Assembly: GCA_905178155.1 (NCBI GenBank)
Contig: CAJINV010000011.1
Span: forward strand, 3,133,144-3,197,143
Direction of reading: 5' to 3'
Source of the DNA: Amoebophrya sp. A120
Lineage: Eukaryota > Protista > Dinoflagellata
Length of the DNA: 64,000 nucleotides
A program made the position numbers and the translations under genes. The notes beneath the pieces were generated by a model, which searched no databases, had not been told where the DNA came from, and was given only the letters and a program-made list of their open reading frames with translations. How positions within the stretch are numbered: the stretch's first letter is position 1; every line of letters begins with the position of its first letter. Positions 1 through 19,374 of this stretch are shown in pieces.

Positions 1-3000
1 AAAGCGGACCCCACTCGCGCCATGCCGTAGCAAGACATGGAGGATCCCAGTCGCGCGAACCTGCGGAAGGAGAAGGAAGAGCCGAGTTGCACGTAGTCGA
101 GAATGGACAAACAACTCGACACTTTCCCGATCCCGTAGACGGACATGGAGCTTCCCAGTCGGCAGAAGTACCGCGTGGAAATGTTCGACCCGACCTGGGA
201 AAAGTCCAAGGTGGACAACATCGAACCCAGCCGGATCTGCCCGTAGAGGCTGCAGCTACTCCCCAGTCTGGAGAACGTTCTGGTGCTGAACGCGGAGCCC
301 ATGTTCACGAAGTCCAAGATCGACAACGCGGACCCGAGCTTGGAAATGCCCCAGATGGACACGCAGCTGCCGAGTCTGGCGAACCCGCGGACGGAGCAGG
401 TGGAGGACAAAGTCAGTAAATCCAAGACGGATAAGCTGCTGCCCATCCTCGCCATTCCGAACACGGAGATCGAGCTGCCCAACCGCGCCATCGACCGCAA
501 AGAGAAACTCGACGCGAGATGCGTGAAGTCCAACACCGACAAGGAACTCCCGATCCTGCCCATGCCGTAGAAGGAGCAGGTGGATCCTAACCTTCCGAAC
601 GTCCGGAGCGATATGGTCGACCCGAGCGAGTTGAAATCGACGACGGAGACGAAGGAGCCCAGTCGTTGCATTCCGAAGACGGAGATAGAAGACCCGATCC
701 TTGCAAACATCCGTAATGACAAGCAACTCCCGACCTGGAAGAAGTCCAAGGTGGATAAACACCGGTTTGGGTCCCTGCAGTCGAAGTGCCTTTGCGCCAA
801 CCTCGCGCCGCCGAAGATGGACAGAGTTGATCCCATTCGCGCGTAACCGCGTAAGGACAGCGCCGACCCGATGTAGCAGGAATCCAACACGGAGCACGGG
901 TGGAATTTCGATAACCTCGCCAGCCCGTACAGCGATAAACTCGACCCCATCCTGGTGAACTGCCGGACTCTCGCGCCGCCGCCCCGCACATTCCCGCGGA
1001 ACTGGAAGTGGAAACCGTTCTGGTTGTTCGCGAGAATGGTGGATGGGAAGTACGCCATCACGTACCGGGGGTTCTCGATCGCCTCGCCGAAGGTCACCGT
1101 GCCGGTGTGGAAGGTTTCAATCCGATTCCACACTGTCGCGCTTGTCACCGCGAAATCGTGTGTATAATACGCTTGGAAGTAGTTCTGGATGTAGTCCGTG
1201 TCCGCGCCGGTCACTTCGAACCCAAACGGGTGCTGATCCCGTAGGTCAAAAGTCACCTCAAACTGCCCGTTCCCAGACACCGCGACACCGTCGGTCGCCG
1301 TCCCCCCGATCGGGTCCGGGAAAATGATGTCGTTTAAAGTCCCGCCGGAAAGCGACGCGACGCCCGACTGAATGAAGTCGGTGATCGACAGTTTTCCCGT
1401 GAGAGGTCCGCCACCGAGTCTTGTCGGGAACATCCCTCGGCCGAGATTCACGAAGTCCAACACGGAGAGACTCTTTCCGATGGTTGCGACCCCGTAGGCT
1501 GAGAAGGAAGAACCCAGTCTGACAAAAGACCGCAGCGTTAAGCTCGATCCCATCTGACAGAACGACATCACGGACAGGCTGGACGCGAGCTGCACGAGCC
1601 CGTAGTTGGACAAAGCCGAGCCTAACCGGAAAAACTTCCGAACGGACAGTTCATTCGCACCGACGCCGAAGTCCAAAATCGACAGGCAGGACCCCAATCG
1701 AGCGCATTTGTAGCAACTAGCCGAGCTGCCGACGCGGAAGAAGGACCTTAACGAGACAGAAGACCCAAAAGTCGCAAAATCCAAGCAGGATAAACACGAC
1801 CCCAGCCTCGCCATCCCGTACAGAGATAACGCGACGTTGCCCCGTTGGTGCCTGCTCGCGGCGTTGTTGTGAATGGAATACGCCGCGCCGATTCTCGCAA
1901 AGTGCCGGACGGAAAGGCTGGAACCGAAGGAAACGTAATCCAACACGGACAAGCAACTGGACAGTCTCGCCGTGCCGAACACGCTGATCGTAGATCCGGC
2001 CTTCATGTAGCTTCTCAACGACATGGAACTTCCGAAGTGGACGAAATCGACAATACTAATCGCCGACGACATCCGGGTCAGCCCGTAGACGGAAATACTG
2101 GACCCAAACCGTGCGAACGTTCGCATCGACAACATGGACCCGAAGTGGACGTGGTCCAGGAGGGACAAGGAAGATCCGAGCGTCATGGTTTGGTAAATCG
2201 ACATCTCACAACCCAATCTCGCGAAAGACCGGAGGGACATGCAACTCCCAAAGTGGATCGCGTCGATTACGGACATGGCAGATCCGAACCGGCTCATCCC
2301 GTAGAGGGACAAAGAAGATCCCATCCGCAGAGTACTCCTGATCGACAAGGATTTCCCTAAGGACAGAAAATCCAAAACGGACACCTGCGACCCGAGCTTG
2401 CACAGCCCGTAGATGGAAAAAGTACTTCCCATGCGCGCGAAGCTCCGCAGACTGTAGCTACTGCCGACGAAGAGGTAATCGAGGACGCTCAAACTGCTTC
2501 CCATCTGCATGAGGCCGTAGCAGGAGGTGCTGCTTCCCAACCGGTTGAATGCGCGGACGGAGATCGCGGACCCGCAGCTGATCGTGTCGAGCAGCGAGAA
2601 CTGCGACCCGAGTCGGCTGATCCCGTACACGGATAGAGAGCTGCTCATCTTGCACAGCTTTCGGATCGACAGACCGGAGGATAACACCGCGAAATCCAGA
2701 ACGCTCAAACTCGACCCGAAGAGCGACAACCCGTAGATCGACAACGAGCTTCCGAGCGCCTGCAGAGACCGTAGCGAATAGGACGACCCAAAAGTCACGA
2801 AGTCCAACACGGAAAGCGCTGATCCGAACCTGTGGCAACCGTACACGGACATCGTCGATCCCATGCGCATAAAGCTCCGGACTGACAAAGCCGAACCGAG
2901 AACGCAGTAGTCCATGACGGAGAAGCTGCTGGCGAACCGGGAAATGCCGAAGAGGGATAATGAACTGCCCATCCTCGCGAACATCCGCACGCTCATCGTG

Positions 3001-6000
3001 CTGCCGAGGGACACGTAGTCGAGAATAGAAAGAGACGATCCCAGCCTCGCGAGCCCGTACACAGAAACTGCGCTGCCCATCCGAATAAACCCTCGCAAAG
3101 AGATCGACGAGCCGATGTGGAACATGTCCAGAATCGACAAAACCGACGCGATTTTCGTCAGTCCGTACACCGAGCAGGTGCTCCCGAGTCGGCTGTAGCT
3201 TCGCAACGACAGTTGGGAGCCGATCGTGAAGTAGTCGAACAGCGACATGCTGCTTCCCAGCCGGCTGCACCCGTAGGTCGACATCGTGCTGCCCAGGCGG
3301 CACAGACCGCGGATGGAAAAACTGGAGCCCAGGCTGACGCAGTCCAAAATCGACATCCCGGACCCGATTCGCGCGATCCCGAAGACGGACAAAGATTGCT
3401 CGAACCGCCCGTAGGTACGGAGCGATAAAGAACTCCCGATGTATAAGTAGTCCAGCAACGAGACACTGCTCCCCATCCGGCCAATCCCGTACACCGACAG
3501 ACTGCTTCCGAATCTCGCGCAGCAGGACCGGAGGGAGACCGTGGAGCCTAGGGAGAGTAAATCCAAGATCGACACGTTCATCCCTAATTTCGAAACCCCA
3601 AACACGGAAAGACTGGATCCCGCTCGGTAGAACCCGCGGACGGACAATGAGCTGCCCAACTGCAGCACGTCCAGAACGGACAGACTCGACCCTAATGTGG
3701 AAATCCCGAACACGGACATGCTGGAGCCCAGTCGGACAAACGACCGCAGGCTGACCGCCGAGCTGAACCAGGAAAAGTCCAGACTGCTCATGGCGGACCC
3801 TAGTCTCGCAACGCCGAAGATCGACACCGTCGACCCTAATCTCGCGAACGACCTTAGACTGTAGCTACTAGCGCACACGATGAAGTCCAGGAGCGAGATC
3901 GTGGACCCAGACCTCGCCAAGCCGTAGACGGAGAGACTACTTCCAAACCGGTTGAAGTTCCGCATGGACAATCCGGAACCGAGGCTCAGCATGTCCAGAA
4001 CGGAGATGCTCGACGTGATCTGCTGCATGGCGTAAACGGAAAAGGAGGAGCCCATCCGGACCAAACTTCGCATCGACAGTCCGCTCCCGTAGCTCGCCGC
4101 GTCTAAAACTGACATCCGCGACCCGAGTCGGACCAGCCCGAACATGGATAAACTCGACCCGATCCTCGCGAACATCCGCACCGAGAGGGAAGATGAATGC
4201 GCACAGGTGTCGCAGATCGAGAAGCTGGATCCGATTCGCACCATGCCGTACAAGCTGTGCGTGCTCCCCAACCTCGCCATGGACCGGAGGGAAACCGACG
4301 ACCCGAGGGTTATCGCGTCCAAAACGGAGAAGTGCGACCCGAGTCGGCACATCCCGTAGATGGACAGAACGGAGCCGACTCGGCAGAAGCCCCGCAGGGA
4401 TAAACTACTCCCGAGTAGTAAATTGTCCAACGTCGACAGATTCGACCCCAGCTTGGCTAACCCGTATAACGAAACCACGCTTCCTAACCGGAAAAACGAT
4501 CGGACAGAAAACGCAGACCCGAGAACGGTGGCGTCGAGGAGGGAGGTTAACGAGCCCAATCTGTTGATCCCGTAGACGCTCAAGCTCGATCCCATCCGGA
4601 AGCAGTAGCGCAGACTCATACTGCTACCGATTGACAAATGGTCGATGATGGAAAACGCGGACCCGAATCTCGTGAAGCCGTAGACGGATAGGGAGGAGCC
4701 CAACCTGCAGTAGTTGCGAATGGACATGCAACTGGAGAGTTGGAACAGATCCAACACCGACGCGCTCATCCCCATCGTGTTGATCCCGTACAGCGACAAA
4801 CTGCTGCCAAATCGCATGCTCGTCCTTACCGACAGTGCGCTGCTGAAGTTCATGAAGTCCAGGATCGACATCGTGCTGCCGCACCGCATTACCCCGAAGA
4901 TGGACAGAGAACTGCCCAATCTCGAGAAGGATCTGACGGACAGCGAGGAAGCCAAGGAGGAGAACTCCAAAGCGGAAACCGCAGACCCCAATCGCGCGAC
5001 GCCGTACACACTGCAACTCGAGCCGATCCGGTAGAAGTACCGCGTGGAAAACGTACTCCCCAGACTTGCAAACGCCAGTACAGAAACGCAGCTCCCGAGC
5101 TTCGTGCAGCCGTACACACTGCAGCTACTTCCCATCCGCGCAAAGGAACGGAGAGATAGGGACGATGCGAACACGCAGCTGCCGAGCGCGGACATCTGGG
5201 AACCGAGGCGTAGAAATCCGTAGACGGACACAGACGAGCCCAACCTCGTCGCCATCCGGATCGAGATGCTGGACCCGAAGGAAACGAAGTCTAGCATCGA
5301 GGCAGAAGACCCGAGTCGTTCCATCCCGAACACAGAAAACGAAGATCCGAATCTCGTGCACCCACGGAGCGACAGACTCGAGGTCAGCATCACCGCGCCG
5401 AAAACGCTCATCGTGGATCCGAACCACGAGTAACTCCGCATGGACAAAGTGCTCCCGCACTCGATGAAGTCCAACGCGGACAAACTGGATCCCAGTTTCG
5501 CGATGCCGTACACCGACGCGTAGCCGCCCGCTCGCCCGTACGTCCGGAGGGACAGGGAAGAACCGAGATTCATGAAGTCCAGCACGGAGATACTACTTCC
5601 CAGCCTGCTCGTTCCGAAAAACGAGAGCGACTTCGCGATCTGGAAGTTCGCGAAGAAACCGTCGCAACCGACGCGGCCAAAGCTCCGTACAGAAATCGAC
5701 GACCCGAACGTGCACCACTGCGCCAGCGACATCGCGGATCCGAGCTTTCCGAACCCGAACACGGAAAAGGAAGAACCGTAACGGGTGAAGGAGCGGACGG
5801 ACATACAGGACCCGAAGTGGATGAAGTTCAGCAGCGAGAACGCGGACCCGAGCCGCGCGCACCCGTACGCCGACATCGCGGATCCGAGCCGCATGAACGA
5901 TCGGACGGACGTGCAGGACCCGAGGTGGAGAAGGTCTAAAACGGACAAACTTGACCCCAGCTTCGTGAACCCGTAGATCGACAGCGCGGACCCCATGCGG

Positions 6001-9000
6001 CCGATTCTTCGGAGCGAAATCGAAGAACCGAAGCTCACGTAATCCAACACGGAAAGTGCGGAGCCGAACCTCGCCGTTCCGTACAGGGAGAGACAGGATT
6101 TCCCCAACCTGGAAAAGCTCGCGACGGAAAAGCTGGATCCGAACTGCACGAAGTCCAGCACGGAACAGGAGGATCCCATTCGCGCGAACCCGTAGCTGGA
6201 GAAGGAGCTCCCTAACCGCAAAAACCCACGGGCTGATAACGACGATCCGATGCTGATGAAGGCCAGGATGGACAAACTGGAACCAATTCTGGTCGTTCCG
6301 TAGACGGAGAGCATAGAGCCTAGTCGGCCAAACGCTTTCAATGAGATGGAACTTCCCATGCACACGTAGTCGACCATAGACAACGTCGAGCCCAATCTGC
6401 TGATGCCGTAGACGGACAGCGCGGAGCCGAATCGGGAGAAGCCTCGGAGGGACAAAGACGATCCGAACAGCACGTAGTCGAGCATCGAGACGGATGAACC
6501 GAGCTTCACGAACCCGTAGATACTGGTTCCGGAACCCAATCGCGCTAGCGTTCTGACGGAAAGGGTTGACCCTAACGTGAAGTAATCGCAGAGCGAAAAG
6601 GCCGACCCGAGGTGACTGATGCCGAAGAAGGATAAGGATGATCCTAACCGGGCAATACTCCGCATAGACATGCTGGACCCGCAGGAGATCGTATCCAGGA
6701 TCGAGAACGAGCTGCCCAGTCTCGAGGCGCCGTAGATGGACAAAGAGCTAGCCATCCGTGCGAAGGTCCGCAGGGATAAAGAGCTGCTCAGCCACACGGC
6801 GTCTAAAACGGACAATCCCGAGCCGCACATCGTCATGCCGAAGACGGAAACGGTTGAGCCCAATCTGCTGTACGTTCGCAGTGACAGCGCGGAGCCGAAG
6901 TGGATCCAGTCGACGACGGAGACACTTGAACCGAGTTTCGTGAACCCGAACAGGGATAAAGAGCTCCCCAGCCTCGCGACAGACCTTAAGGAGAAGGAGC
7001 TGCCAATCTGCAAGAAGTCCAGCACGGAAATCTGGGATTTCATCGCCCCGATGCCGTACATGCTCACGGTGGACCCCAGTCGGGTGAAACTCCGCGGTCT
7101 TATCTGCCCTAGTGCCAAGTAGTCCAGCACGGAACAGCTGCTGCCGATCGAGCTGAACCCAAACACGGACAACGAACTCCCCAGCCGCGAGAAGCTTCGC
7201 AGGGACAATGCGCTACCTAAACTGAAGTGGTCCAAAGCCGACATGCTGGACCCGAGCCGCGCCACTCCGTACAGCGAGATCGCAGAGCCTAGTCTCAGAA
7301 ACCCGCGGGTGGAAAAGCTGCTTCCGACGTTGTAAAAGTCCAGGATCGACAAGCAACTGCCGAATCGCATTTGCCCAGACACTGAAATGGCACTGCCGAA
7401 GCGAGAGAAGCACCTTACGGACAGCGAGCTCCCGAGGTGCACGGAGTCGAGGACCGACAGTTCCTTTCCAATCCTGGCCAAATAGTAGCAGCTCATCGCG
7501 GATCCGCACCGGAAAAACTGCCGGAGCGACATCGAAGACCCCGCTTGGACCAGATCGAGAACGGACAAGCTCGAACCGCATCTCGCGACACCGTAGAGCG
7601 AGAACATCATGGCGCTGCCCATGCGGAAGAAGGACCGAAGACTGACGGAAGACCCGATGGTGATGTAGTCGAGTTGCGACATCTGCAATCCTAGTCTCGT
7701 CATTCCGTAGATGCTGTAGACCGATCCCATGCGACTGTAGCTCCGCGCGGAAAACTCCTGGCCTAAGTGTAGGTGATCCAGTAGCGATAAACTGTAACCT
7801 AATTTAGCCGTTCCGTAGCAGGACAATGCGGATCCGTATCGGCACAAACCTCGGACGGACAACCCACTCCCCATGCTGACGCAGTCGAGCAGGGAGAGTG
7901 TTGACCCTAGTCGCGCCATGCCGAACATGGAGAGAGAACTCCCACATCTTGCCGCTTTCCGGATGGAAATGCTGCTCCCTACGTGCACGAAGTCCAGTAC
8001 CGACAGTTGCGACCCGATGCGGAAAAAACCGTACACGGAGAAGCTGCTGCCTATTCTCGCCATGTTCCGGATTGAGAGCGCTGAGGACATCATAAGCACG
8101 TCTAACACACTCATGGAACTCGACATCCGCGACAGGCTGTACAAGGACAGAGTCGACCCGAGCCTGCTAAACGACCGCAAAGAGTAGCTGGACCCCATGT
8201 AGAGCGCGTCTAACACGGACATGCTGCTTCCGCACCGCGAGATGCCGTACAGCGACATGGACCGGCAGGTGCGACTAAAGCCCCGCAGCGACATGGAGGA
8301 GCAGAGGTACGCCTGGTCCAAAACCGAGATCGCGGAACCTAGTCTCGTCATTCCGTACACGGAGAGCGCGGAGCCGCACCGGACAAAGTTCCGGACGGAA
8401 AACCCGGACCCCATCTCCACGAAATTCAGCACCGACATCGCACTACCGAATCTCGCCATGCCGTACACGGAGAGCGAGCTCCCCAGCCGGGAGAACGTCC
8501 GCACGCTGCACGTACTGGCGCAGATCGCCGCGTCTAGTAAAGATAAGCTGGATCCGAGCCGCGCAATCCCGAACACGGACAAAGCCGACCCCAACCGCAT
8601 CTGGCAGCGCAACGACATGGAACTGCCGACCGCGACGGCGTCCAAGACACTCATGGACGAACCCATCCTGCTGACGCCGAACACGGACAGACTAGACCCC
8701 AACCTCGCCAGTCCTCTGCAACTGAAGCTGCTGCCGAAGTGCGTGAAGTCCAGGATCGACATCGCGGAGCCGTACCGCGACATGCCGTACACGGAGACGG
8801 AATGGCCGAGTCGCGCGTACGCACGCATGGAAAGCGAACTTCCCATGTGCAGCGAGTCCAGCACGGAGCAGGAACTTCCGATGTGCTGAATCCCGTAGCA
8901 GCTCATCGCACTGCCCATCCGCACTAAATTCCGGATCGACAAACCCATGCACATGTCTTGCGTCGAGAAGTGATTGGCTAAAAACACCGCGTCGAGGACG

Positions 9001-11050
9001 GAAACACTGGACCCCAACCTCGCAATCCCGTAGATGGAGATCGAGGATCCGATCCGAACGAAACTCCTCAATGACGTCGTAGATCCTATGTGCGCCATGT
9101 CTAGAAGCGACAAACAAGATCCTAACCGCGTGCACCCGTAGACGGACAGACTGGAGCCTAACCTCGCCAGTGTTCTGGTCGACAAACTGGACCCAAAGTG
9201 CACGAAGTCCAACACGGAAATCGAGCTTCCCAGTCGCGCCGCGCCGTACAAGGAGAGACAACTCCCGAGCCGCGCGAAATTTCGCAACGACAGCGCGGAC
9301 CCGAAATGCGAGCAGTCGAGTAGAGACAGGCTGCTGCCGAGGTGGGAGATCCCGTAGAGGGATAATGTCGACCCAACCCGGCAGTACCGGTTCAGCGACA
9401 CGGAGGACCCCAAGTGCGTGAAGTCGATCAGGGAAACCAGCGATCCTAACCTCGTCATTCCGTACACGGAGAACGTGGACCCGAACCGGCTGTAGGACCG
9501 CAACGACAAAGAACTTCCCATCGTCACGAAATCCAGCGCGGACAGACTGCTCCCGAACCTGGCGCACCCGAAGGCGGACAGAGCGGACCCGAGTCTCTTG
9601 AAGGATTGCACCGACACGCTCGATCCGTAGTAGCCCTGCTGGCCGACGGAGAGGTAGGAGCCCATCCGCGTGTTCCCGAAGACCGAGCACGTACTCCCCG
9701 CGCGGAAGAAGGTGCGGAGAGACATCGAACTACCCATGTTGCCCTGATCTAAAATCGACAACGTTGACCCGACTCGCGCCAACCCGTAGACCGAAATGCT
9801 GCTTCCCATCCGCGTGTACCGCCTAATTGAGATCGACGACCCGAGATGGTAGTAGTCCAACGCGGAGCAGATCGACCCTAGCCTCGTGAAGCCGTAGATC
9901 GACAGGGAACTGCCCAACCGGCACGTCGCGCGGAGGGAGAGGGAGGAGCCCAATCCCATGAAGTCCAGCATGGTCAGGTTCGACCCTAATCTGACCGTCC
10001 CGTACACTGACAAGGCGGACCCGAGGCGCGCGAAGTACCGCAAGGAGACCGCGGTGCCGATGGACACCAGATCCAGTATCGACAGATTCGACGCCATCGT
10101 GCAAATCCGGAACACGGACAGGCTGCTTCCGAGCCGCGAGAACGACCGTAAGCTGATCGCACTGCCGAGCGCGATGTGGTCGAGGATACTGCACCCGGAG
10201 CCGAGTTTGCCCAGCCCGTACACACTCATGCTGCTTCCGCACCGGCCTATCTTTCTCAACGACAAACTGGACCCGATCAGGACGAAATCCAACACTGAGT
10301 ACCCGGATCCCATTCGGTTCATGCCGAAGATCGACATCGCGGACCCCAGGCGGCCGAAGGAGCGGAGGGACAGGGAGGACGCCATGTTCAGGTAGTCGAG
10401 TAAAGACAGCATCGACCCGATCCTCGTGATCCCGAAGACGGAAAAGGTTGACCCTAATCTGCCCATCGTTCTCACCGACAAAGTCGACCCGAGCTGGCAG
10501 TAGTCCATGATACTCAAAGAGCTCCCCAACCTCGTCATGCCGTACACGGATACCCCGGACCCGAACCGGGACAAGGTTCTGATACTGTAGCTCGACCCGA
10601 GGAAGAGGTAGTCCAACACCGACAAACTACTCCCGTACCGCTGCACGCCGTAGACGGAAAGCCCAGAACCCAGCTTCGAGCACATCCGGATGGACAACGT
10701 GGAGGAGAAATCCACGCAGTTCAGCACCGACTGGCAGGAACCCAAAATCGTCTTCATGTAGACTGACAACGAAGTTCCTAGTCTCACAAACGGGTAGTAG
10801 GGCCGGTTGAACTGGTCCACGGGTAGTGGCCCTGGTCTGCCTAAGGAGAGCGAGCTACCCAGGTGCGCGCACCCGAGAACGGACACGGACTCGCCGAACC
10901 GACCGAACCCGGTCAAGGATAAGGTGCTCCCTAGCCTGGCGAAGGATCGCAACGACACCGCTGATCGGAAGGAGATGAAGTCGTAGACCGAGAGCTTCTC
11001 CCCGAATCCGGCAAAATACCGGACCGACAGCTGGTTCCCGAAGTAGCCCA
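1..11050 (-). repeat. Coding tandem repeat, 12-aa units in a 36-aa (108-nt) super-period
   Basis: Three unit types cycle: SVYG/SVFG, SVLDF/Y and SLRSF/SVR, each followed by (R)LGSS. Copies are diverged at the nucleotide level. Confidence 0.9.
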
Positions 11051-11207
11051 TCTGCGCGACGGACAGGTAGGACCAGAACCGCTTCAGGGCGTTGTTCCTT
11101 TTGAGCGTGATGTAGTCCTGCGGCAGGTAGATCGGCTCCGTGATAGGGATCGTACCGAGCGGCGGGTACGCGCGCGACTGGATGGAGGTGGCCTCACCCA
11201 GTTTCAC
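1..11207 (-). CDS. Giant beta-repeat fibre-like protein, exon 2 (at least 3,735 codons, 3' end beyond window start)
   Basis: Manual translation from acceptor CAG|GTG at 11207 gives VKLGEATSIQ...AVSLRSFARLGSTLSLTGFGRFGESVSVLG... The same frame is read at positions 1-1450 (...SCYGMARVGSA). The ORF track has no stop-terminated minus ORF in this frame, and the shadow plus-strand ORFs keep one register throughout. Confidence 0.92.
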   Translation of the reverse strand, partial: MKLGEATSIQSRAYPPLGTIPITEPIYLPQDYITLKRNNALKRFWSYLSVAQMGYFGNQLSVRYFAGFGEKLSVYDFISFRSAVSLRSFARLGSTLSLTGFGRFGESVSVLGCAHLGSSLSLGRPGPLPVDQFNRPYYPFVRLGTSLSVYMKTILGSCQSVLNCVDFSSTLSIRMCSKLGSGLSVYGVQRYGSSLSVLDYLFLGSSYSIRTLSRFGSGVSVYGMTRLGSSLSIMDYCQLGSTLSVRTMGRLGSTFSVFGITRIGSMLSLLDYLNMASSLSLRSFGRLGSAMSIFGMNRMGSGYSVLDFVLIGSSLSLRKIGRCGSSMSVYGLGKLGSGCSILDHIALGSAISLRSFSRLGSSLSVFRICTMASNLSILDLVSIGTAVSLRYFARLGSALSVYGTVRLGSNLTMLDFMGLGSSLSLRATCRLGSSLSIYGFTRLGSICSALDYYHLGSSISIRRYTRMGSSISVYGLARVGSTLSILDQGNMGSSMSLRTFFRAGSTCSVFGNTRMGSYLSVGQQGYYGSSVSVQSFKRLGSALSAFGCARFGSSLSALDFVTMGSSLSLRSYSRFGSTFSVYGMTRLGSLVSLIDFTHLGSSVSLNRYCRVGSTLSLYGISHLGSSLSLLDCSHFGSALSLRNFARLGSCLSLYGAARLGSSISVLDFVHFGSSLSTRTLARLGSSLSVYGCTRLGSCLSLLDMAHIGSTTSLRSFVRIGSSISIYGIARLGSSVSVLDAVFLANHFSTQDMCMGLSIRNLVRMGSAMSCYGIQHIGSSCSVLDSLHMGSSLSMRAYARLGHSVSVYGMSRYGSAMSILDFTHFGSSFSCRGLARLGSSLSVFGVSRMGSSMSVLDAVAVGSSMSLRCQMRLGSALSVFGIARLGSSLSLLDAAICASTCSVRTFSRLGSSLSVYGMARFGSAMSVLNFVEMGSGFSVRNFVRCGSALSVYGMTRLGSAISVLDQAYLCSSMSLRGFSRTCRSMSLYGISRCGSSMSVLDALYMGSSYSLRSFSRLGSTLSLYSLSRMSSSMSVLDVLMMSSALSIRNMARIGSSFSVYGFFRIGSQLSVLDFVHVGSSISIRKAARCGSSLSMFGMARLGSTLSLLDCVSMGSGLSVRGLCRYGSALSCYGTAKLGYSLSLLDHLHLGQEFSARSYSRMGSVYSIYGMTRLGLQMSQLDYITIGSSVSLRSFFRMGSAMMFSLYGVARCGSSLSVLDLVQAGSSMSLRQFFRCGSAMSCYYLARIGKELSVLDSVHLGSSLSVRCFSRFGSAISVSGQMRFGSCLSILDFYNVGSSFSTRGFLRLGSAISLYGVARLGSSMSALDHFSLGSALSLRSFSRLGSSLSVFGFSSIGSSCSVLDYLALGQIRPRSFTRLGSTVSMYGIGAMKSQISVLDFLQIGSSFSLRSVARLGSSLSLFGFTKLGSSVSVVDWIHFGSALSLRTYSRLGSTVSVFGMTMCGSGLSVLDAVWLSSSLSLRTFARMASSLSIYGASRLGSSFSILDTISCGSSMSMRSIARLGSSLSFFGISHLGSAFSLCDYFTLGSTLSVRTLARLGSGTSIYGFVKLGSSVSMLDYVLFGSSLSLRGFSRFGSALSVYGISRLGSTLSMVDYVCMGSSISLKAFGRLGSMLSVYGTTRIGSSLSILAFISIGSSLSARGFLRLGSSFSSYGFARMGSSCSVLDFVQFGSSFSVASFSRLGKSCLSLYGTARFGSALSVLDYVSFGSSISLRRIGRMGSALSIYGFTKLGSSLSVLDLLHLGSCTSVRSFMRLGSAMSAYGCARLGSAFSLLNFIHFGSCMSVRSFTRYGSSFSVFGFGKLGSAMSLAQWCTFGSSISVRSFGRVGCDGFFANFQIAKSLSFFGTSRLGSSISVLDFMNLGSSLSLRTYGRAGGYASVYGIAKLGSSLSALDFIECGSTLSMRSYSWFGSTMSVFGAVMLTSSLSLRGCTRFGSSFSVFGMERLGSSASMLDFVSFGSSISIRMATRLGSSVSVYGFLRLGSQMSALGSCVFASSLSLRSFARMGSSCSVYGCTKLGSCVSVLAFASLGSTFSTRYFYRIGSSCSVYGVARLGSAVSALEFSSLASSLSVRSFSRLGSSLSIFGVMRCGSTMSILDFMNFSSALSVRTSMRFGSSLSLYGINTMGMSASVLDLFQLSSCMSIRNYCRLGSSLSVYGFTRFGSAFSIIDHLSIGSSMSLRYCFRMGSSLSVYGINRLGSLTSLLDATVLGSAFSVRSFFRLGSVVSLYGLAKLGSNLSTLDNLLLGSSLSLRGFCRVGSVLSIYGMCRLGSHFSVLDAITLGSSVSLRSMARLGSTHSLYGMVRIGSSFSICDTCAHSSSLSVRMFARIGSSLSMFGLVRLGSRMSVLDAASYGSGLSMRSLVRMGSSFSVYAMQQITSSISVLDMLSLGSGLSMRNFNRFGSSLSVYGLARSGSTISLLDFIVCASSYSLRSFARLGSTVSIFGVARLGSAMSSLDFSWFSSAVSLRSFVRLGSSMSVFGISTLGSSLSVLDVLQLGSSLSVRGFYRAGSSLSVFGVSKLGMNVSILDLLSLGSTVSLRSCCARFGSSLSVYGIGRMGSSVSLLDYLYIGSSLSLRTYGRFEQSLSVFGIARIGSGMSILDCVSLGSSFSIRGLCRLGSTMSTYGCSRLGSSMSLFDYFTIGSQLSLRSYSRLGSTCSVYGLTKIASVLSILDMFHIGSSISLRGFIRMGSAVSVYGLARLGSSLSILDYVSLGSTMSVRMFARMGSSLSLFGISRFASSFSVMDYCVLGSALSVRSFMRMGSTMSVYGCHRFGSALSVLDFVTFGSSYSLRSLQALGSSLSIYGLSLFGSSLSVLDFAVLSSGLSIRKLCKMSSSLSVYGISRLGSQFSLLDTISCGSAISVRAFNRLGSSTSCYGLMQMGSSLSVLDYLFVGSSYSLRSFARMGSTFSIYGLCKLGSQVSVLDFLSLGKSLSIRSTLRMGSSLSLYGMSRFGSAMSVIDAIHFGSCMSLRSFARLGCEMSIYQTMTLGSSLSLLDHVHFGSMLSMRTFARFGSSISVYGLTRMSSAISIVDFVHFGSSMSLRSYMKAGSTISVFGTARLSSCLSVLDYVSFGSSLSVRHFARIGAAYSIHNNAASRHQRGNVALSLYGMARLGSCLSCLDFATFGSSVSLRSFFRVGSSASCYKCARLGSCLSILDFGVGANELSVRKFFRLGSALSNYGLVQLASSLSVMSFCQMGSSLTLRSFVRLGSSFSAYGVATIGKSLSVLDFVNLGRGMFPTRLGGGPLTGKLSITDFIQSGVASLSGGTLNDIIFPDPIGGTATDGVAVSGNGQFEVTFDLRDQHPFGFEVTGADTDYIQNYFQAYYTHDFAVTSATVWNRIETFHTGTVTFGEAIENPRYVMAYFPSTILANNQNGFHFQFRGNVRGGGARVRQFTRMGSSLSLYGLARLSKFHPCSVLDSCYIGSALSLRGYARMGSTLSIFGGARLAQRHFDCRDPNRCLSTLDFFQVGSCLSLRMFARIGSSISVFGMQRLGSFVSVVDFNSLGSTISLRTFGRLGSTCSFYGMGRIGSSLSVLDFTHLASSFSLRSMARLGSSISVFGMARMGSSLSVLDLLTLSSTCSVRGFARLGSCVSIWGISKLGSALSILDFVNMGSAFSTRTFSRLGSSCSLYGQIRLGSMLSTLDFSQVGSNISTRYFCRLGSSMSVYGIGKVSSCLSILDYVQLGSSFSFRRFARLGSSMSCYGMARVGSA

Positions 11208-11385
11208 CTGTGTATTTTTCGGGGTTTCGATTTTGGGAAAATGTATGAGATGTGTGCATAGAACTACAGATTGGATTCATCTATACTTCGATTTCATACG
11301 ACGAAGACAGTCTGTAGTTCGCGTCAAAACTGCCACACAATCTTCGAGAACTCGAATTTATGAAAAACCAAAATTCAGTAAATAC

Positions 11386-12900
11386 GTCGCCGGAGATGCT
11401 CAGGTCTGACCCGATACGCACGTCGTTTCCGATGCTCATCTTCGAATTGACCACGGTGTGCGCCGGGTCTTCTATTGGTTGGGTGGAACCAATACTCGTG
11501 CGCATCCCCATCAAGTACGACTGCTCGGTCACGGAGAGCGTCTGTCCGAAGATCGCAGCACCCTCGACATTTGCGGACGACACGACGTAGACCTCCTTCG
11601 GATCCCTTGTCAGCGCCATGAGTGTTTTGTACTCCTGCAAGACCGGACCTTCCGTTTCCCCGCTGGCCTGTATAAAGATCTCCTTCGAGATCAGAAACGC
11701 CTCGCGGTTGTCGAACCACTCCTGCATGTGCATGTTCCACTCCCGGATCCCGTCGTAGCGGAACCGGATCCCGGCTTGGGCAGATTTGTTGTCGATCGAC
11801 TGCCCCTGCGGATCGATATCGATCGGACCTAGGAGCGTGATCGCACCCGTGTTGGACACAAGCACAAAGGCCTGCGCGATTTCCGTCAGGAGCGAAAAGA
11901 ACGCAACGATCCGCATCAGGACGGTCTGTTTCGAAGAAGTTGCTGGTGGACTACTAGTGGTCTTCATTTTCCGTTTTATCCTTTTGTGGTTCGTGTGCTG
12001 GTATAATGTCGGTGTTGTGATATTGTTTTCCTCTACTGCGAACATCTCTTCAGCACTACAACTCCGTGGCGGCACGAGACTCCGCCTCCGAAGCTGTGAT
12101 AAAGAACTCGCCATCCTCTTCACCCGACGTATTCTCGATTTTCTCCGGCGCCTTATTCTGTTCCTCTGAATTATACTTGAAGTGGAACAAGTAGGCGACA
12201 CAACGAGCGGCTTTCGCCAGGAGAGCGACGCCCGTCTGATGTGGCCGTTTGTTCCATTTGTTGCCGTTTGGTGGAGAGATGATGATGATCCTTCGTCGTC
12301 GTTATCACAACTAGCATCGACACGGTCTCTGTCACTGCCAATAACAGAAGCCGTGGATTTATTTTGCCGTTGTTGTTGGTTTTCTTCGTTCTCTGCTCTC
12401 CTTATGCGGCGAAAAAGCTGCCAACAGATCCGCTGCAGGAAAGACACGAAGGCGAAGAAGTAACACCAGACGAGTTCGACGAAAGAGAAATTTTGTTTCG
12501 CAAAATAAGTTTCTTCTCTTCTACTCCGCCCCGCGGTATCGTTGTCGTAGTAACTGGAGTAGCTTTTGCGTTTTTTCCTCCGTTTCGACGTATCATCTTC
12601 TATTCTGGTCGTGGAGAGTAGACCAGCGGAGCTCCGGAAATGAGAGTTCTGAAACACGACTCCATCTTCTGAAGCACCGCAAGCCTCCTCCGTCGTTGAA
12701 GTTGTTGCAGCTACGCTGCTGTGGTCTTCATCCGGTTTTGATGCAGTTTTATCCGCTCCCGGTTTTGACGTAGAAGAGAGACAAAATCGACTAGAAGACG
12801 AGCAGCTTGGTGTGGCGGGGTCGAGCCACCCGAGGTCGGCAGGGTCCACCCATCTCCTGCGACCCCTGGATCGGTGTGGTGGCGCCTCTACCACCTGCAT
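11386..12900 (-). CDS. Giant beta-repeat protein, exon 1 (start at 12900, or at the signal-peptide-like Met at 11916)
   Basis: ORF 11281..12900. MRIVAFFSLLTEIAQA|FVLV at 11916 resembles a signal peptide. The exon ends SKMSIGNDVRIGSDLSISGD, already in repeat register, and joins exon 2 through a phase-0 GT-AG intron at 11208-11385. Confidence 0.75.
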
Positions 12901-13009
12901 TGCTCGAATCTGGTCTGCATCTGATGGCGGCCCACGACGAGAATCCGCTCTCCGGCAACTAGATGTGAGGAAAAAAACTTCATTTTTGATGGAAGGTGTT
13001 GCGTAGTGG

Positions 13010-13535
13010 TATGAAATAATTTGTAGGGTAACAGAAATTTAAATCGTGAGGTAGTATAGTGAAGTTGTGCATAAGTAGTACGGGTAGGTGAATTTTTAGA
13101 GTATTGAATTGAGTAATAGTTGTTGAAAAGTAATAAGAGTAATAAGATGTCAAAAAGTTACCTATTCTACTGGTGAGATACTAAGGGTACCTACTTAAAA
13201 GTAATGAACACTAAACCAGCAAAAAGAGTAACTTGTACAGATTGTTTCAAGATGCAATTGAAATAAAGTAAATAAGAAATAAGACTCGACTATAGTCTGT
13301 TGAATAGCGAATAGTAAAATCAGATAAAAAATGTTTGAATAAGTTTGAATAAAATGTCAATAGGATGCGATAAAAATAGAAAAATAAAGAGAGAGAGAAA
13401 TAAGTGTTTGCGATCTATCTATCAGAGTGTTATAAGAATAGTCTATCGATAAGTAAATATAAAGTGACCTAAATAATATCCGAGTACCTATAAAAATAGA
13501 AAAATATTTCAGAGATCTAAAAAACAAGAAAACCT
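13010..13535. other. AT-rich intergenic tract upstream of the giant gene
   Basis: Strongly A-rich on the plus strand (T-rich on the coding strand), with no ORF in the track. Confidence 0.5.
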
Positions 13536-14580
13536 ATTGTTGTTTGGATTGGGATTGGGTTCACGATGTTCACACAAGGGACGGGGTCATGGAAGTTTTG
13601 GAATGAAAGCAGACGAAAGATTGAACCTTTTTTTTTCGATTCGCGCGACATGCTACACAGTACCAAACAACTCACACAAACACATGGATTTGTCAGACTT
13701 GTTTCGGTGCTACTTCTCTCGACAGTGCAACAGGACAGAACTGTTTTTCAAAAAAAATCTAATGCCTATTCACACAGAAGGAAAACAAACAAACCGATCT
13801 TCTCAAATGCGTCATGATATGCTGGTTCTCGTTTTTTCAAAATCTCACAACCATTTGTACTCTTTCATACACCCGACTAAATCTAGCAAGTCCTAGTACT
13901 TATCACTAAAAAAAATCAGACCTGTTTTGACTCTTTGGAAAGCAGTTTCAGGAGGGGAACACGAAGTCGGGGGGTCGTGGGTAGATCCAAATGCTCTATG
14001 CCGACGTCACGACATTGCACGATGCTAGAAATTTTCGTACGGTACGGCTAAGGAATTTCAATTTTGTACGATTACGCCTTCGATACCTTTTTGGACGTTT
14101 TGCACGTTGCGCACGACTTTTCTACTTATCTTGTCGATTTGCTTGCCTTCGTTTGACCATGTTTGCTGACTTTTTTTGGCGAAAAAAACACGTGTCTACG
14201 CTACGTACCTACGACCCCTTGAATAGTAAACGATGCTTAGAGCTATGCTCAGACGTTTTCTTGCAATGTATAACTTTGCTCTTCTTGTTCTTGTGCAGTC
14301 TTTTTAGTGCACAGCATTAACGATGCTATTACGGTTACTAGACTCTGTCTTGCAAAAGCGGCATGAGCATGACGTCGACCACGCGTCACGCATTCTACAA
14401 AAATGACCGTGTACGAAACTCTGATTCAAAATTGCAACGATCTCGTAGTCGTTTAGTAACGACGAGAAACTGCATCTGACCTCTGTGCTGGAAACAACCT
14501 CTGAAACGAAATCTCTATATTTTGCGCGTATTCATAGCATGGACTTTTGTTGAACGAAGTACTTACTGAGAGGCACTGTA

Positions 14581-17500
14581 TCACAATCTTTCCAGTGCTT
14601 TCGCCAGCTTTTCGGCCGCCGCCCGCTCTCCTTCGCTCAACGGATGTTTTCTCTGCCGCATCTTGGCTGCCGGCGCCAGACTCGATGGACCACTCGATAC
14701 CTGCATGGAGTTTTCTATCGACAACTGTTTCCCCTTCGCCCCCAGCCGATCGCACACGTGGTTGAAATCTGTGGACTCTATGTCGTCCAGATCCAGCTGC
14801 GATAACTGCTCTAGAGTGGCGGAATTGGTTGGTTTCCCGCTGTGTCTCAGCAACTGCTCCATCAGCCGCTGGGTCTTCTTGCTGCTTGTGCTCTGATTGT
14901 GTCCAAACGCGCTGGCGTTTGGACTGTGGTCTTTATTTTGCGTGGCTGTGCTGTCCGAAGCGGCGAGAAGTGCTGCTGGGGGATGGACTAAGTTCACCTC
15001 CCGCCACTTCTGATTGAGCTTTTTCGTCAATGAGAGCATCATGTTCTCCGCTTCCGCGTATTTCAGCGTGCCGGCCGCGTAGAACATCTCCCATTTCGAA
15101 TCCGCATTGCAGAGGACACCTGATCATGGGAGTGAAAAACGAACAAAGTTTTACCTGCAAAAGGTGTGGCCGCATCGTGCTACCTCGTGGTCCTCGCACT
15201 AGTCAGTACATCCGGTAGTTTCTCCATCACAAGCTTTAAAGTACCTCGGCTTTTCCCGAGATCGGTGCACGTGGACACCTTCACCCTCTTATCCAGCCCG
15301 ACTGTTTTCACAACCGCGTCCTGCACTAATGTTCCCTCTTCTTCCTCCGACACGAATTCCAGCACCGCAATCTTCTGCACGCTGTCCTCGTGAAGAATCG
15401 CTTCTTGCAGCCTAAACGGCTTGTTCTCGTTTTTCGACTGCTTATTCATGAACCCGACGGAACTAGAGGGATTCGCCACGTTGGGAAGGATGTTGTTCCA
15501 GTAAAAAGTCAGGTCGTACTCCCTTACCTGGCCCTTCATGTCACCGAGGAACAGGTGCACGCGGTCGGGGGCGGCGGCGGGGTGGTGGAGTTTCAGGCAA
15601 GTTAAATCGCCTTGCTGCACGTAGGCGGAAAGGACTTCGGCTTGGTGAAATTGGTACCTTATTGATGAAACGAAAAAAACTTTTCATTTTCTAATGCACG
15701 ATAAAGCATTGCGTTTGTTCCTGTTCTTGAGAGGATCAAAGAAACAGTTCCAACGCAGTAGGATTGAAGAAACAACGTCGCAAACTACTCAGTATAGATA
15801 CGTTCTTCTCCACGGGCTTTCCCTGTCTGGTTTTTCAAAAATCGAAACATTCCCGCCCGCTTCTGCACACACCAAGCTGTTCGTTTTCACGACGAAATCG
15901 CAACCGACGACGAGGTCTTGGAAGACCGTTAAAACCTGCTCCTGCTTGAGTGACTTCAAATCACACAAGCAAACCGTCCCGTCCGACGACCAACTAGCAG
16001 CGGTTTCTCTCCCCACCGCTAGACCCAAAACCGCGTCGCCGTGCGCTTGGTACTCGGTTTTGAAATTCGGCAAGGCTGAGCCGGTGTCCGCGTGGATCTT
16101 CACGCTCCCTTTCCCACTGCCGGAAAGGACGAGAGGGCCGTCTAGTGGGCTGTCGTACAAAGCCATCGCGGTGACCTCTTCCCCGGGTGCGTTCGGGCTG
16201 GAAAATTCGCGGAGCAACTTCCCCATCATAGAGAAGCTCGCAATGCTCCCCTGGCTGTTCCCGACGATCAGTTTCCGATTGTTATTTGAAACGACAAACG
16301 CAGTTAATTCCCCGCTGGAAGAGGATGAGGATTTCGCTGTCGTTCCGGCGGCGAGATTTGTCGCGGCGCTTGTGAACTGCAAATCCTTCAGCAGTTGTAT
16401 CATTCGCCCGGATTCCGCGTCCCAGATTTTTATCGACTTCCGGCTCAGAGTGAAAAACCTGCCTCTGTGCCCATCCCAGGAGGTGGCGCGGACTTCCAGC
16501 GCATCAGTGACTTTTTCGTCCTCGTTGGACCCCGCAGCGTTCTCTCCTTCCCTGCTGTCAAGGTAGTCGTAGAGCCGGATGTTCCCGATTCCACACGCTA
16601 TCCTCTTTAGCTCTGGGATAACGCAGAAACTGGTGAGGTCGGTTATTGCGTCGGTAGCGCCGAAGACCTGGGTTAGATAAAACCCAGCATGTTGTTCGCA
16701 GAAGCAAATAAATAAGCAGGAGGAGTGAAATAAAGCACTCACGGTGCTGCACTTCATCGCATCACTTTAACCTTTCTTTCTAGTAGAAGCGTAACACCAA
16801 TTTTCATACCTGCGAGCAGCCGAAGTTCCTGACGTCCCACACGCGGAGAATTCCCCCGATATCGCCGGTGATAATCTGCGGGTAGGACCCCACCCCGATC
16901 TGTATCCCGACCAGGCTGTGCGTGTGGCCCTTCAGCTTGAAGAGGTGGGATATGTCCACATAGGGGTTCCACACCAGCGCCTCCTGATCCAGACCGACGG
17001 ATAACAAACAGCCCATGCTGTAGGCGAGCTGGAGCACAGATTTTTTGTGCCCTTTCAAGTGTTTTTTCGGCTTGAAACTCTGCACGTCCCAGAGGTAAAT
17101 CGTGCAGTCGGAGCTGGCGGACGCGATGAGGAGCATGTCGGGAAGCATAAGGAGGTCATTCACCTCCGCTTTGTGCGCTTTTCTGCTGTCCTTTAACGCC
17201 AGCGTGGTCAAGTCCCACTTGCTCACGGTGCCGTCGATAGAACCTGATGTAAGTAGTTGTAGTGAGTTCATCACATTGACAGAATTGCACTGCTCTTTCT
17301 TAGAAGGAAACAAATACGATACTTCCTTATGGGAAGGCAAGTGGCTTGTTTTTGTTAGCAAACAAACTCTATACCAGAGTAGATGCAGCTCGGGTCTACC
17401 TGCGAGTTGTACGCAAGACAAATCTGCACGTCCCGGCAGACGACCCGAGAGCGTAGTTTCAGGCTGTTGCTGTCCCACAGGCAAATCGTCATGTCGGCGG

Positions 17501-19374
17501 CACAGGTGGCGATTTGATCCATCGGCTCCACGTAAATACACGTGATCACAGAGCCCCTATGCCCGGCCACTTCCGCTTTTAAATGGAGTTTCTTCGGATC
17601 GTAGATGCGGAATTTTCTTGACTGGGAAAAGCAGGCGAGGTAGTTCTTCTCTGGTAAATAAACCAGCCGTTCCACGTTCGCCTCGTGCTTCGATAAATCG
17701 GTCACGCTGCTTTCCTGGTAGGCTTTGGTTTCCAGCTGGGCGACAGCGCTGTGGTTTGGTTTGATGAACACCAGAACTAGAAGATTATAATACCAGCCTT
17801 TCGATGCCGACCGGTAGTTGCACCGGATTCATCCAAAAGCAAATAGCAAATGCATGAAATGATAAATGAACTTTCAAAACAATAAAACCCTTCTACCCGT
17901 CCATCTCGTTGCTTTGACTCTTGCCTTGTTCTATCAGAAGAGAGCTACACTCCTCCCATGTGATTTCTCCCACCGAGTGCACATCGATTTCCCGAAACAA
18001 TTCCACTATGGACGCTATGTTGAACAGCAGCGCATCCTCCGCTTCTCTTGCGGCGGCGTCTTCTTCGTTTTCTTCTTTCACCTCACCACCCTCCTCCCCT
18101 GCTTTCTCCTCGTCGGCGCCGCCACCGGTAATTCCTGTCACACTTATCCTCCCGGTTGCTGAACTACTAGTACCTTTTGCTGTTGCTTGTGCTTGTTGCA
18201 CCATAGAAGTTGTACCCGCGGCGGAGGGTGTCCGCATTTCACTCGGGGGCCCACTGCCTTTCGCCCCGACCTGTCGACTTTGCGGCCTGCTGGGCTGGGA
18301 TTCGGTTTCCTGGTTGCCATGGACGCTTTCCGCATCCTCGCCAGAATCGTGCTCGATCTCTTCTTCTTCTGTGCCGACAAAAAGCTCGAAGTTGACAAGC
18401 ACGGAGATTAAAAACCTAAAGTTATGGTTTATTCAACGAGATGCTGCACGAAGACCCATGCATAATCAATCTACTGGCATGATGCAAGAGCAAGACAGAT
18501 ACGGACATAACGTACTAAAAACTCTCCTAAATAAAAGTACTTTTCCAGATCCAGCACGCCGTCGTTTCTGTCGAAGTCGGCCTGCAGCTTCGCCAATTTC
18601 TCGTGCTCGAATAGTATTTGCAGCACGTATTTTTCCCGGTACTTGCACTTCCGTATCATTCTCCTTGCCAGCTCCGCATCCCTCTCTTGCATCTCGGCTA
18701 TTGTAATCGGTTTCACCTCGGTCGTCGGACTCCGCTCTTGCTCCGCCTGCCGCTTTATGCATTGCAAATATGTCTGGGTCTCGAAGATTGCAAGCTTGTG
18801 ATGGGCAGCTCAGAACACACAAAGATCTGTCATGCATAGATAGCAAAAGTTGCCCCCTATTTTCTGGGCACCGAAACCAGGGATCTGTCATGCGGACCAG
18901 GCATTGAGAAGCGTGCTCAAAACCTGTGATGCCAGGGCATGCATGCCAGAGCTTCTGAGTCATGCGGAGGCTGCATCACAAACCTCTGCTTGTTTCTAGA
19001 ACACCAGATGGCATATTTGCAATGCATACGCCTCCCCTGCATCTCGTGCAGACTCCGCAACCTCCTGGTTCGTTCATTCCCGACCTCGATCAGTGCAATC
19101 AAATGCAAAAGTGTCTGGGTCTGGAAGATTGCTGAGGTTTGTGATGCTGTGTCTGCTTGACACAGAAGGTGTGGCATGCAAAGCCTAGCATCACAGGTTT
19201 TGAGACGGCTTCCCAATGCGTAATCCGCATGACAAACGCCTTCTCTCGGCGACAGTAAAAAGAGCTCTTTTTGCTGTCCAAGCACGACAGATTTTTGTGT
19301 GATCTAAGTATGCATCACAAGTTCGTATCCTTCCAGACCCAGACGTAATTTTTGCAGTCGATAAGTGCGGGCAT
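14581..19374 (-). CDS. EF-hand plus WD40-repeat protein (WDR49/EFCAB8-like), multi-exon
   Basis: EF-hand-like ELFREIDVHSVGEITWEEC. WD repeats include GHRGSV..ICLWD, AHKAEVNDL..IASASSDCTIYLWD, GHKKSVLQL..LVWN and GHTHSLVGI..LRVWD. The N-terminus MPALIEVG...GRRQAEQ assembles in frame across two introners. Confidence 0.85.
18756..19028. mobile_element. Introner family 1 (TIR core tgtctgggtctggaag), 273 bp
   Basis: Ends tatgcattgcaaatatg...catatttgcaatgcata, TSD cgctt/cgcct. Removal gives QGRRQAEQ in frame. Confidence 0.85.
19097..19363. mobile_element. Introner family 1, 267 bp
   Basis: TIR gtctgggtctggaag/cttccagacccagac, TSD agtgc/agtgc. Removal gives MPALIEVG. Confidence 0.85.

Follow-up and report, generated by a model that had tools for sequence, protein, structure and literature searches.

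A spliced gene of Amoebophrya sp. A120 for a giant dodecapeptide-repeat protein, a probable member of the TLP-12 glycofibril family

The 64,000-nt stretch of the Amoebophrya sp. A120 genome that was analysed in this study (the window) contains a very long minus-strand reading frame, which raises the questions of whether it belongs to a real gene, which protein it encodes, and what this protein might do. Reading-frame translation of 11276..3 (-) yielded 3,758 codons without a stop before the frame leaves the window at its edge, in agreement with an earlier note, made from the letters of the DNA, that had described an open minus-strand frame of more than 11.2 kb. The gene comprises the following features:

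12901..13463, minus strand: AT-rich 5' region, likely the 5' UTR, with three short upstream ATG frames (RNA-like contigs)
11917..12900, minus strand: Ser/Arg/Lys-rich leader, 328 codons from Met 12900 (open frame, RNA-like contigs)
11869..11916, minus strand: signal-peptide-like 16-mer from Met 11916 with an A-x-A cleavage-like end (sequence)
11386..11868, minus strand: conserved N-terminal head domain, the remainder of exon 1 (BLASTP, alignment, profile search)
11208..11385, minus strand: phase-0 GT-AG intron of 178 nt (ends read off the DNA; absent from the X3, X4 and X5 contigs)
3..11039, minus strand: 276 GSxxSx7-type dodecapeptides in an A-B-C cycle of 36 aa, predicted triple-beta shaft (segmentation)
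948..1442, minus strand: non-repeat insert of 165 aa in the shaft (gap in the segmentation)

Gene structure, transcripts and the N-terminal region

The gene is real and spliced. Met 11916 lies outside the long frame, and the intron 11385..11208 connects the first exon to the frame of the array; the signal-like segment proposed in the earlier note is encoded by this first exon. The intron is spliced out in three RNA-like assemblies (X3, X4 and X5, all from one sample), which provides the transcripts whose absence the earlier note had regarded as damaging. In a strain comparison (X7), differences were silent throughout the exons (18/18) and the repeat array (16/16). Splicing from Met 11916 joins 177 and 3,735 codons into a product of at least 3,912 aa, a lower bound with the 3' end beyond the window, and the predicted size of more than 3,900 aa was therefore confirmed. 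Translation from an upstream in-frame Met at 12900 would give at least 4,240 aa, and the first-exon frame stays open as far as 13038. Repeat-like DNA runs on for ~10 kb past the window edge in an X1 contig, and further X1 contigs carry repeat-bearing paralogs. Within the window, Pfam identified cellular neighbours (WD40, ankyrin, Vps35 and DUF2009 genes), which together with the spliced GT-AG intron speak against the tail-fibre gene of a virus or provirus. Two of eight neighbouring introns were non-canonical, a reported trait of Amoebophrya.

The leader is probably coding and under weak constraint. Its frame contains no stop in 374 codons, where 13 were expected (0 of 2000 simulations), and it is carried on the same unbroken spliced contigs as the rest of the gene, although its low GC3 (0.51 vs 0.78) and the five non-silent among nine strain differences (11917..12900) count against coding. 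It has a single hydrophobic stretch at ~12489..12433, after which basic residues follow. Farther upstream, an X3 contig covers 12923-13463 and an X5 contig reaches 13247, and the GC content above ~12950 is 0.25-0.36.

The head domain matched a Perkinsus olseni protein (P0124) in BLASTP with an E value of 8e-8. A word search for longer proteins in which exon 1 was the query was negative; a later profile search with the head gave 101 matches, one of them named (Symbiodinium microadriaticum). The motif that follows the signal-like 16-mer was present in 53 of these 101 matches, and in 41 of the 53 it lay within the first 45 aa. Pfam assigned no family to exon 1 or the long frame. In the ESM Atlas the head scored best (0.91) with an unnamed cluster, followed by T4 tail-fibre clusters (0.88-0.89), which we treat as leads only. 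Head-profile matches to long Bacteroidota-type repeat proteins spanned only ~30 positions, which is a lead, short of homology.

A dodecapeptide array of the TLP-12 type

At lags 12 and 36 the identity autocorrelation reached 0.31 and 0.42, respectively, compared to 0.10 in 20 shuffles. Strict GSxxS motifs occurred 228 times (19.5 ± 3.9, maximum 32, in 200 shuffles), 178 of them at exact 12-residue spacing, and the segmentation into 276 dodecapeptides contrasts with 0-5 in five shuffles. The units fell into 95 A, 84 B and 90 C with 7 unclassed, corresponding to ~90 cycles, as anticipated by the note's three-unit 12/36-aa repeat of 90-100 cycles. The exact words are rarer than its consensus implies (SVYG 27, SVLDF 11, SLRSF 13, LGSS 49). 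Gly1 is present in 242/276 units, Ser/Thr2 in 261/276 and Ser/Thr5 in all 276, the last figure being partly circular because GSxxS units had served to build the profile; positions 4, 6 and 12 are hydrophobic. Ser acceptor residues are retained whether the codon belongs to the TCN or the AGY class, and glycosylation of Ser2 and Ser5, which the earlier note had missed, is likely.

These properties closely resemble TLP-12, a trimeric Ser-glycosylated beta-ribbon fibril with a cryo-EM structure (bioRxiv 10.1101/2025.09.30.679562). According to the main text of this preprint, the GSxxSx7 repeat is defined by Gly1, Ser2 and Ser5 with two short hydrophobic strands (positions 4-6 and 10-12), and the fibril has C3 symmetry and a helical rise of 9.6 Å, i.e. 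0.96 nm per repeat. There, TLP-12 is attributed to proteins of Amoebophrya that carry an intramolecular chaperone (ICA) at the C-terminus. A motif search recovered ~150 proteins from six alveolate species or strains, Polarella is also named, and Amoebophrya supplies the largest members known (e.g. UniProt A0A8J1ZHD7, 19,853 aa). Because the 228 strict GSxxS motifs and the Gly1/Ser2/Ser5 pattern fit the TLP-12 definition, we assign the A120 protein to this family. The two also share giant size, thousands of residues in TLP-12 and at least 3,912 aa here, a dinoflagellate and perkinsid range, and, in homologs, the ICA at the C-terminus. Taken by itself, the sequence finding adds one more member to a family reported in 2025, and for membership jointly with the steps of splicing, secretion, trimerization and glycofibre formation proposed below we estimate a probability of roughly 90%. 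Hence, the statement of the earlier note that no named family was known to it has to be dropped; a match to a characterised family, which it had listed as evidence against its interpretation, was found.

Several features described here were not found in the main text of the preprint, namely the conserved secretory head, the 36-residue cycle and the 165-residue insert; the terms 'signal peptide', 'N terminus' and 'flagell' have no occurrence in that text. Free-living dinoflagellate members beyond the preprint's six species or strains and a full member of 1,055 aa (L037) are also added. The named homologs that were checked all belong to dinoflagellates (Biecheleria, Pfiesteria, Apocalathium, Alexandrium, Symbiodinium) or to Perkinsus, with P. 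olseni possessing the same head and repeats, and member lengths differ greatly, from the 1,055 aa of L037 to about 20,000 aa. A literature search outside subscription papers found no paper assigning a function to the family. TLP-12 has been a near-atomic structure without an assigned function or confirmed source, to which the gene adds a spliced, selected and apparently secreted member whose conserved head and unique insert can be used as antibody or peptide targets to locate the fibril in the cell.

A 216-aa monomer of the repeat, modelled by AlphaFold with no alignment, showed short strands 12 residues apart. The fold assignment rests on the preprint because this single-chain prediction was weak (pLDDT 44.5). 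Foldseek gave no match at E 0.001, and a PDB sequence search with the repeat gave nothing significant (LpxA with E 0.12 at best). By VIA structure comparison the model aligned to beta-helices (best Z 12.3, rmsd 3.6, 212 residues aligned; 132 chains with Z ≥8). These alignments, the LpxA label that some sources attach to homologs, and scores of the repeat against PHROG 36281 and 5353 (no function assigned to either) would suit a single-chain beta-solenoid of the LpxA or pectate-lyase type or an endogenous virus gene. Both are highly improbable: the model is of low confidence, hundreds of unrelated solenoids score alike, homologs end in a triple-beta-helix ICA, and a spliceosomal-type intron amid ordinary eukaryotic genes and the absence of the repeat from every viral locus searched argue against a virus. 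The VIA matches were rejected as an identity, being generic solenoids, as was the hexapeptide left-handed beta-helix of LpxA, with no Pfam match and a lag 6 autocorrelation of 0.076, under the shuffled 0.10. No relative of the repeat was found in phages by tblastn or in viral and prokaryote contigs by exact 8-residue patterns (an insensitive method), and the two of 77 ICA-bearing viral loci with spaced G-S-x-x-S had Gly/Ser/Thr triplet repeats instead. The insert matched nothing in Pfam or PHROG (ESM Atlas best score 0.88; AlphaFold pLDDT 34.3); that it is a binding domain is speculation.

The C-terminal chaperone and fibre assembly

The C-terminus of the A120 protein lies outside the window, and an ICA is predicted for it from homologs. 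PF13884 (Peptidase_S74, ICA) was found on 86 of 120 homologs among those listed, and SDxRxK in 92 of 127 stored homolog proteins. Among 80 metagenome loci that were located via ICA patterns and kept, 35 are repeat-bearing, 30 of which have the ICA motifs in the same frame. A single frame of 1,055 aa in L037 carries a signal peptide and the head as well as repeats and an S74 domain (27 bits against a cut-off of 22). Self-cleavage is not universal, since L037 is without the canonical SDxRxK.

Phage tail fibres have a trimeric beta-shaft whose folding starts from the C-terminus. Family members resemble the S74 fibres and spikes of phages in the ICA as well as in the stretch that immediately precedes it: residues 194-382 of the homolog P0022 matched PHROG 1980 (tail fibre; E 1e-17), and P0022 matched the long tail fibre PDB 6f45 (E 0.001). 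In contrast to phage tail fibres, the A120 protein is far longer, is without virion context, and has an intron-bearing eukaryotic gene, a signal-peptide-like segment and a Ser-rich, putatively glycosylated repeat. A quick, unrooted ICA tree (137 columns; 73 rows, made up of L037, 23 of the stored proteins of the family and those domains that scored highest among 149 eligible ones, with MYRF left out) placed the 24 family rows on one side of a branch with an SH-aLRT of 92, below the mark of 95, and did not resolve the donor of the family ICA. Eukaryotic use of a phage-type ICA is also seen in the animal membrane transcription factor MYRF, in which the ICA frees a DNA-binding trimer, whereas in the TLP-12 family the ICA would serve to fold a structural fibre. 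The preprint, in its main text, cites MYRF as an ICA protein.

We propose that the spliced gene with its silent strain differences, both observed, gives rise to a fibre protein as follows. Judging from sequence and homologs, the chain would enter the ER via the signal-peptide-like segment. The S74/ICA expected beyond the window would then trimerise three chains, as suggested by homologs and the preprint, seed zipper-like folding of the shaft, and be released by self-cleavage, as happens in phage tail fibres. With the cryo-EM structure of TLP-12 as the model, every 12-mer would contribute two short strands with O-glycans on Ser2 and Ser5, and each repeat would lengthen the fibre by 0.96 nm. The repeats within the window would thus span ~265-280 nm, at the top of the 50-300 nm range given in the earlier note, or ~550 nm if those past the window share the frame, and gene length would set fibre length. 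The predicted product is a rigid three-chain sugar-coated fibre. The secreted-type, trimeric beta-helical fibre with phage tail-fibre kinship that the note had suggested is supported by the S74/ICA of homologs and the PHROG tail-fibre matches.

Possible functions of the fibre

The protein of simple flagellar hairs was called unknown in a 2017 review. Our working hypothesis, for which the odds fall somewhat short of even, is that the simple hairs on the transverse flagellum are made of TLP-12 fibres. More tentative still is a wider scenario in which the family provides the simple flagellar hairs of myzozoans, with one trimer forming one hair and repeat number setting its length. The gene would go back to the tail-fibre gene of a phage or bacterium, which was domesticated a single time, ahead of the perkinsid/dinoflagellate split, and gained a signal peptide and O-glycan sites, and the long membrane-type leader of some members would hold the precursor at assembly. 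If the hair hypothesis is true, it names the protein of this structure and adds a phage-type fibre turned eukaryotic organelle. Chlamydomonas mastigonemes (Mst1/Mstax) and stramenopile tubular hairs are also secreted, heavily glycosylated flagellar-hair fibres. The likeness is one of analogy: their proteins have folds differing from the TLP-12 type, and no Pfam match ties the A120 protein to them. Against a hair, L037 would yield a fibre of only ~55 nm, and trichocysts with filament heads are equally available as a structure.

The same fibre could belong to an extrusome, as trichocyst head filaments or as a mucocyst thread, or to a host-attachment thread, a possibility that we regard as doubtful. 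Trichocysts occur in the infective spores of Amoebophrya, where they are thought to aid host attachment, and across free-living dinoflagellates; perkinsid trichocysts have a twisted-filament head, and the 165-aa insert might, speculatively, be a binding domain. However, the shaft proteins known from dinoflagellate trichocysts are small and resemble those of Paramecium. Comparably doubtful is an extracellular glycocalyx, mucus, cyst fibril or carbon store. TLP-12 came free from pond water and, in the preprint's main text, its authors propose carbon storage; paralogs on other X1 contigs and widely different member lengths also fit. On the other hand, a conserved head and a long leader in the same frame point to anchoring or to an ordered assembly, and a chain of thousands of residues would presumably be a costly means of storing sugar.

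A parasite-specific invasion device, as suggested in the earlier note, appears unlikely. In its favour, no members are known to be larger than those of Amoebophrya, and the parasite P. olseni has the same head and repeats. This parasite-only role is weakened because the named homologs, from Biecheleria, Pfiesteria, Apocalathium, Alexandrium and Symbiodinium, include free-living dinoflagellates, and the preprint adds Polarella.

Repeat array and gene structure

The minus frame 11276..3 is free of stops across 3,758 codons and passes the window edge, in agreement with the open frame of more than 11.2 kb described in the earlier note. Ser makes up 22% of its residues, Leu 13% and Gly 11%. Identity autocorrelation in this frame has its peaks, 0.31, 0.31 and 0.42, at lags 12, 24 and 36, respectively (0.10 when shuffled), and strict GSxxS occurred 228 times versus 19.5 ± 3.9 in 200 shuffles. 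Profile segmentation yielded 276 dodecapeptide units, and the three units of the 36-aa cycle follow one another in almost regular A-B-C order (A 95, B 84, C 90, unclassed 7), consistent with the roughly 90–100 three-unit cycles proposed earlier. Positions 7–8 of consecutive units carry in turn Arg, Tyr/Phe-Gly and Asp. Because nucleotide identity among the cycles averages just 0.51 (maximum 0.69), we consider them old; a single 32-bp array was all that Tandem Repeats Finder called within the repeat region. Other elements of the gene are:

1442..948, minus strand: 165-aa non-repeat insert in the array, seen as a gap in the segmentation
11385..11208, minus strand: GT-AG intron of 178 nt connecting the Met 11916 exon to the long frame
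11917-12900, minus strand: long Ser/Arg-rich leader in frame with exon 1, probably coding; basic residues come after a hydrophobic stretch

The earlier note had placed a signal-like segment and an N-terminal domain before the repeats; both are present and the domain (head) is conserved, but Met 11916 lies in a different reading frame from the repeats and is reached through the intron. From this Met, the spliced protein comprises 177 + 3,735, i.e., at least 3,912 aa, as the predicted size of more than 3,900 aa implied. Transcripts, which the note had suggested looking for, are probably represented by contigs of assemblies X3, X4 and X5, which lack exactly the 178 nt of the intron. The three come from a single sample and their RNA nature is a tool's guess, but neighboring genes are also spliced there, and 13885-18300 is mostly without coverage. 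In an estuary metatranscriptome (X7), all 18 listed exon differences from the window were silent, although the one at 6054 may stem from a paralog.

Translation somewhat more probably starts at Met 12900, which lies on the same unbroken spliced contigs as exon 1. The first-exon frame is open as far as 13038; its 374-codon stop-free stretch arose in none of 2,000 simulations (13 stops expected), and both X7 deletions in the leader are 3 nt long. Some homologs (P0128, P0135, P0156, P0168 and P0079) also have leaders of this kind upstream of the head, dissimilar in sequence to that of the window. GC3 of the leader (0.51 vs 0.78) and residue changes at five of nine strain differences argue against this start. 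With either start, the head comes after a signal-peptide-like segment and a motif resembling a cleavage site.

A 29,974-nt contig (X1 record 1) spans window 1-16000, with window position 1 at base 11,197, and carries repeat-like matches at 962, 8877, 9329 and 11001, all past window position 1; X1 may be where the window comes from. These are the same gene continuing or a tandem copy, and matches on two further X1 contigs are paralogs. Should the matches down to base 962 form a single frame, the protein would be longer than 7,300 aa; they may instead belong to a tandem paralog.

Relatives and origin

Scoring 7,989 candidates with a 500-aa repeat query gave 260 matches. Among those listed, 86 of 120 homologs carry the intramolecular chaperone (ICA; Peptidase_S74, PF13884), and named sources are Biecheleria, Pfiesteria, Apocalathium, Alexandrium, Cladocopium, an unnamed dinoflagellate and Perkinsus olseni. 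Most are 3' fragments reading repeats, short beta linker, ICA and coiled-coil-like tail. The P. olseni protein shares the signal-peptide-plus-head layout of the window gene (E 8e-8). A head profile built from seven sequences had 101 matches among 1.84 billion representatives, one from Symbiodinium microadriaticum; 53 contain a cleavage-site motif, in 41 of these within 45 residues of the start. Some matches lacking it are long bacterial-type repeat proteins aligned over ~30 positions. Both ends of the family are connected by one metagenome locus:

L037:226-3390: complete short member of 1,055 aa, with signal peptide, head, repeats and S74 in one frame

Its ICA lacks the canonical SDxRxK motif and, by sequence, is possibly uncleaved. 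Seven homologs (P0027, P0044, P0047, P0065, P0076, P0095, P0113) have low identity and few intact units; the three that were read, P0027, P0044 (Cladocopium) and P0065, are Leu/Pro-rich and look like the family's repeat genes read in a shifted frame. JGI names seven members (P0005, P0006, P0013, P0056, P0057, P0073, P0089) 'acyl-ACP--UDP-GlcNAc O-acyltransferase', likely a misannotation caused by the repeat.

The ICA, together with the linker ahead of it, hits tail-fibre families of phages (PHROG 1980, E 1e-17; 40 phage records at E 0.01). The repeat alone scores against two PHROGs of unknown function, which may reflect common periodicity, and insensitive scans found no such repeat in viral or prokaryotic loci. 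In a quick tree, the 24 family ICAs share one side of a branch (support 92) and no donor is singled out; it is plausible that a fibre gene of a phage or bacterium was acquired once.

Predicted fibre formation and possible use

The earlier note knew of no named family, yet one exists: TLP-12, a pond-water fibril resolved at about 3 Å. According to the preprint (bioRxiv 10.1101/2025.09.30.679562), three dodecapeptide chains intertwine, with Gly1, glycosylated Ser2 and Ser5, strands at positions 4–6 and 10–12, a rise of 9.6 Å and a twist of −11.3°. Its authors tie it to ~20,000-aa Amoebophrya proteins with a C-terminal ICA (A0A8J1ZHD7 has 1,263 GSxxSx7 repeats) and count about 150 candidates from six alveolates (species or strains), not one of them with a characterised function. 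The window repeat satisfies GSxxSx7, with Gly1 in 242, Ser/Thr2 in 261 and Ser/Thr5 in all 276 units, the last partly inherent in the segmentation profile. The gene is real and, judged from its repeat, belongs to the TLP-12 family. The structural guess of the earlier note, a beta-helical fibre, was largely right. To the TLP-12 picture we add a secretory head, the insert, a wider spread among free-living species and a hair hypothesis that can be put to the test.

The signal-like segment would lead the chain into the ER. In phage tail fibres, the ICA starts trimer folding and self-cleaves; the ICA known from homologs would act likewise, and two Ser per repeat would be O-glycosylated, by analogy with TLP-12. 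The product would be a stiff fibre of 265–280 nm from the window part, or about 550 nm if the frame goes on. The same preprint also gives 18 repeats in 14 nm, i.e., 7.8 Å each, which would shorten these estimates by ~20%.

We favor use in the simple hairs of the transverse flagellum, at a probability of about 0.4. Hair lengths agree with the micrometre fibres expected from 20,000-aa members. This reading draws, besides the length fit, on papers reporting such hairs on Amoebophrya spores (bioRxiv 2025.04.10.648098), similar hairs between the nuclear membranes of Psammosa (PMC3377698), and non-tubular hairs of myzozoans whose proteins were unknown in 2017 (PMC5756292). The part of PMC6176090 available mentions neither hairs nor trichocysts. 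Trichocyst filaments or attachment threads (PMC9478091, PMC8375308) are a weaker candidate, and a general extracellular fibril is an equally weak one; an invasion device of parasites only is highly improbable. For the hair reading, a possible test case is a perkinsid with hairless zoospores, described in PMC8375308.

Gene neighborhood

The surrounding genes are ordinary eukaryotic genes, on the minus strand throughout:

15000-44100, minus strand: frames with Pfam matches (WD40, methyltransferase, ankyrin, Vps35, DUF2009)
23247-23410 and 25691-25847, minus strand: introns with ends other than GT-AG (4 and 2 letters assignable to either side), missing in X3, X4 and X5

None of eight plus-strand frames tested had a Pfam match. 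This fits the unidirectional gene clusters of Amoebophrya, for which PMC7789003 also reports non-canonical introns at over 60%; the share here is lower (two of eight, the other six being GT-AG). The likely source is a syndinian resembling Amoebophrya. A 29-bp tandem repeat with a palindromic core (four copies) lies at 52771-52886, with more short repeats at 51804-52231. At 18968-19631 and 28928-29730, numerous RNA-like contigs that are short, high in depth and loose-ended pile up; these are presumably repeated genome elements.
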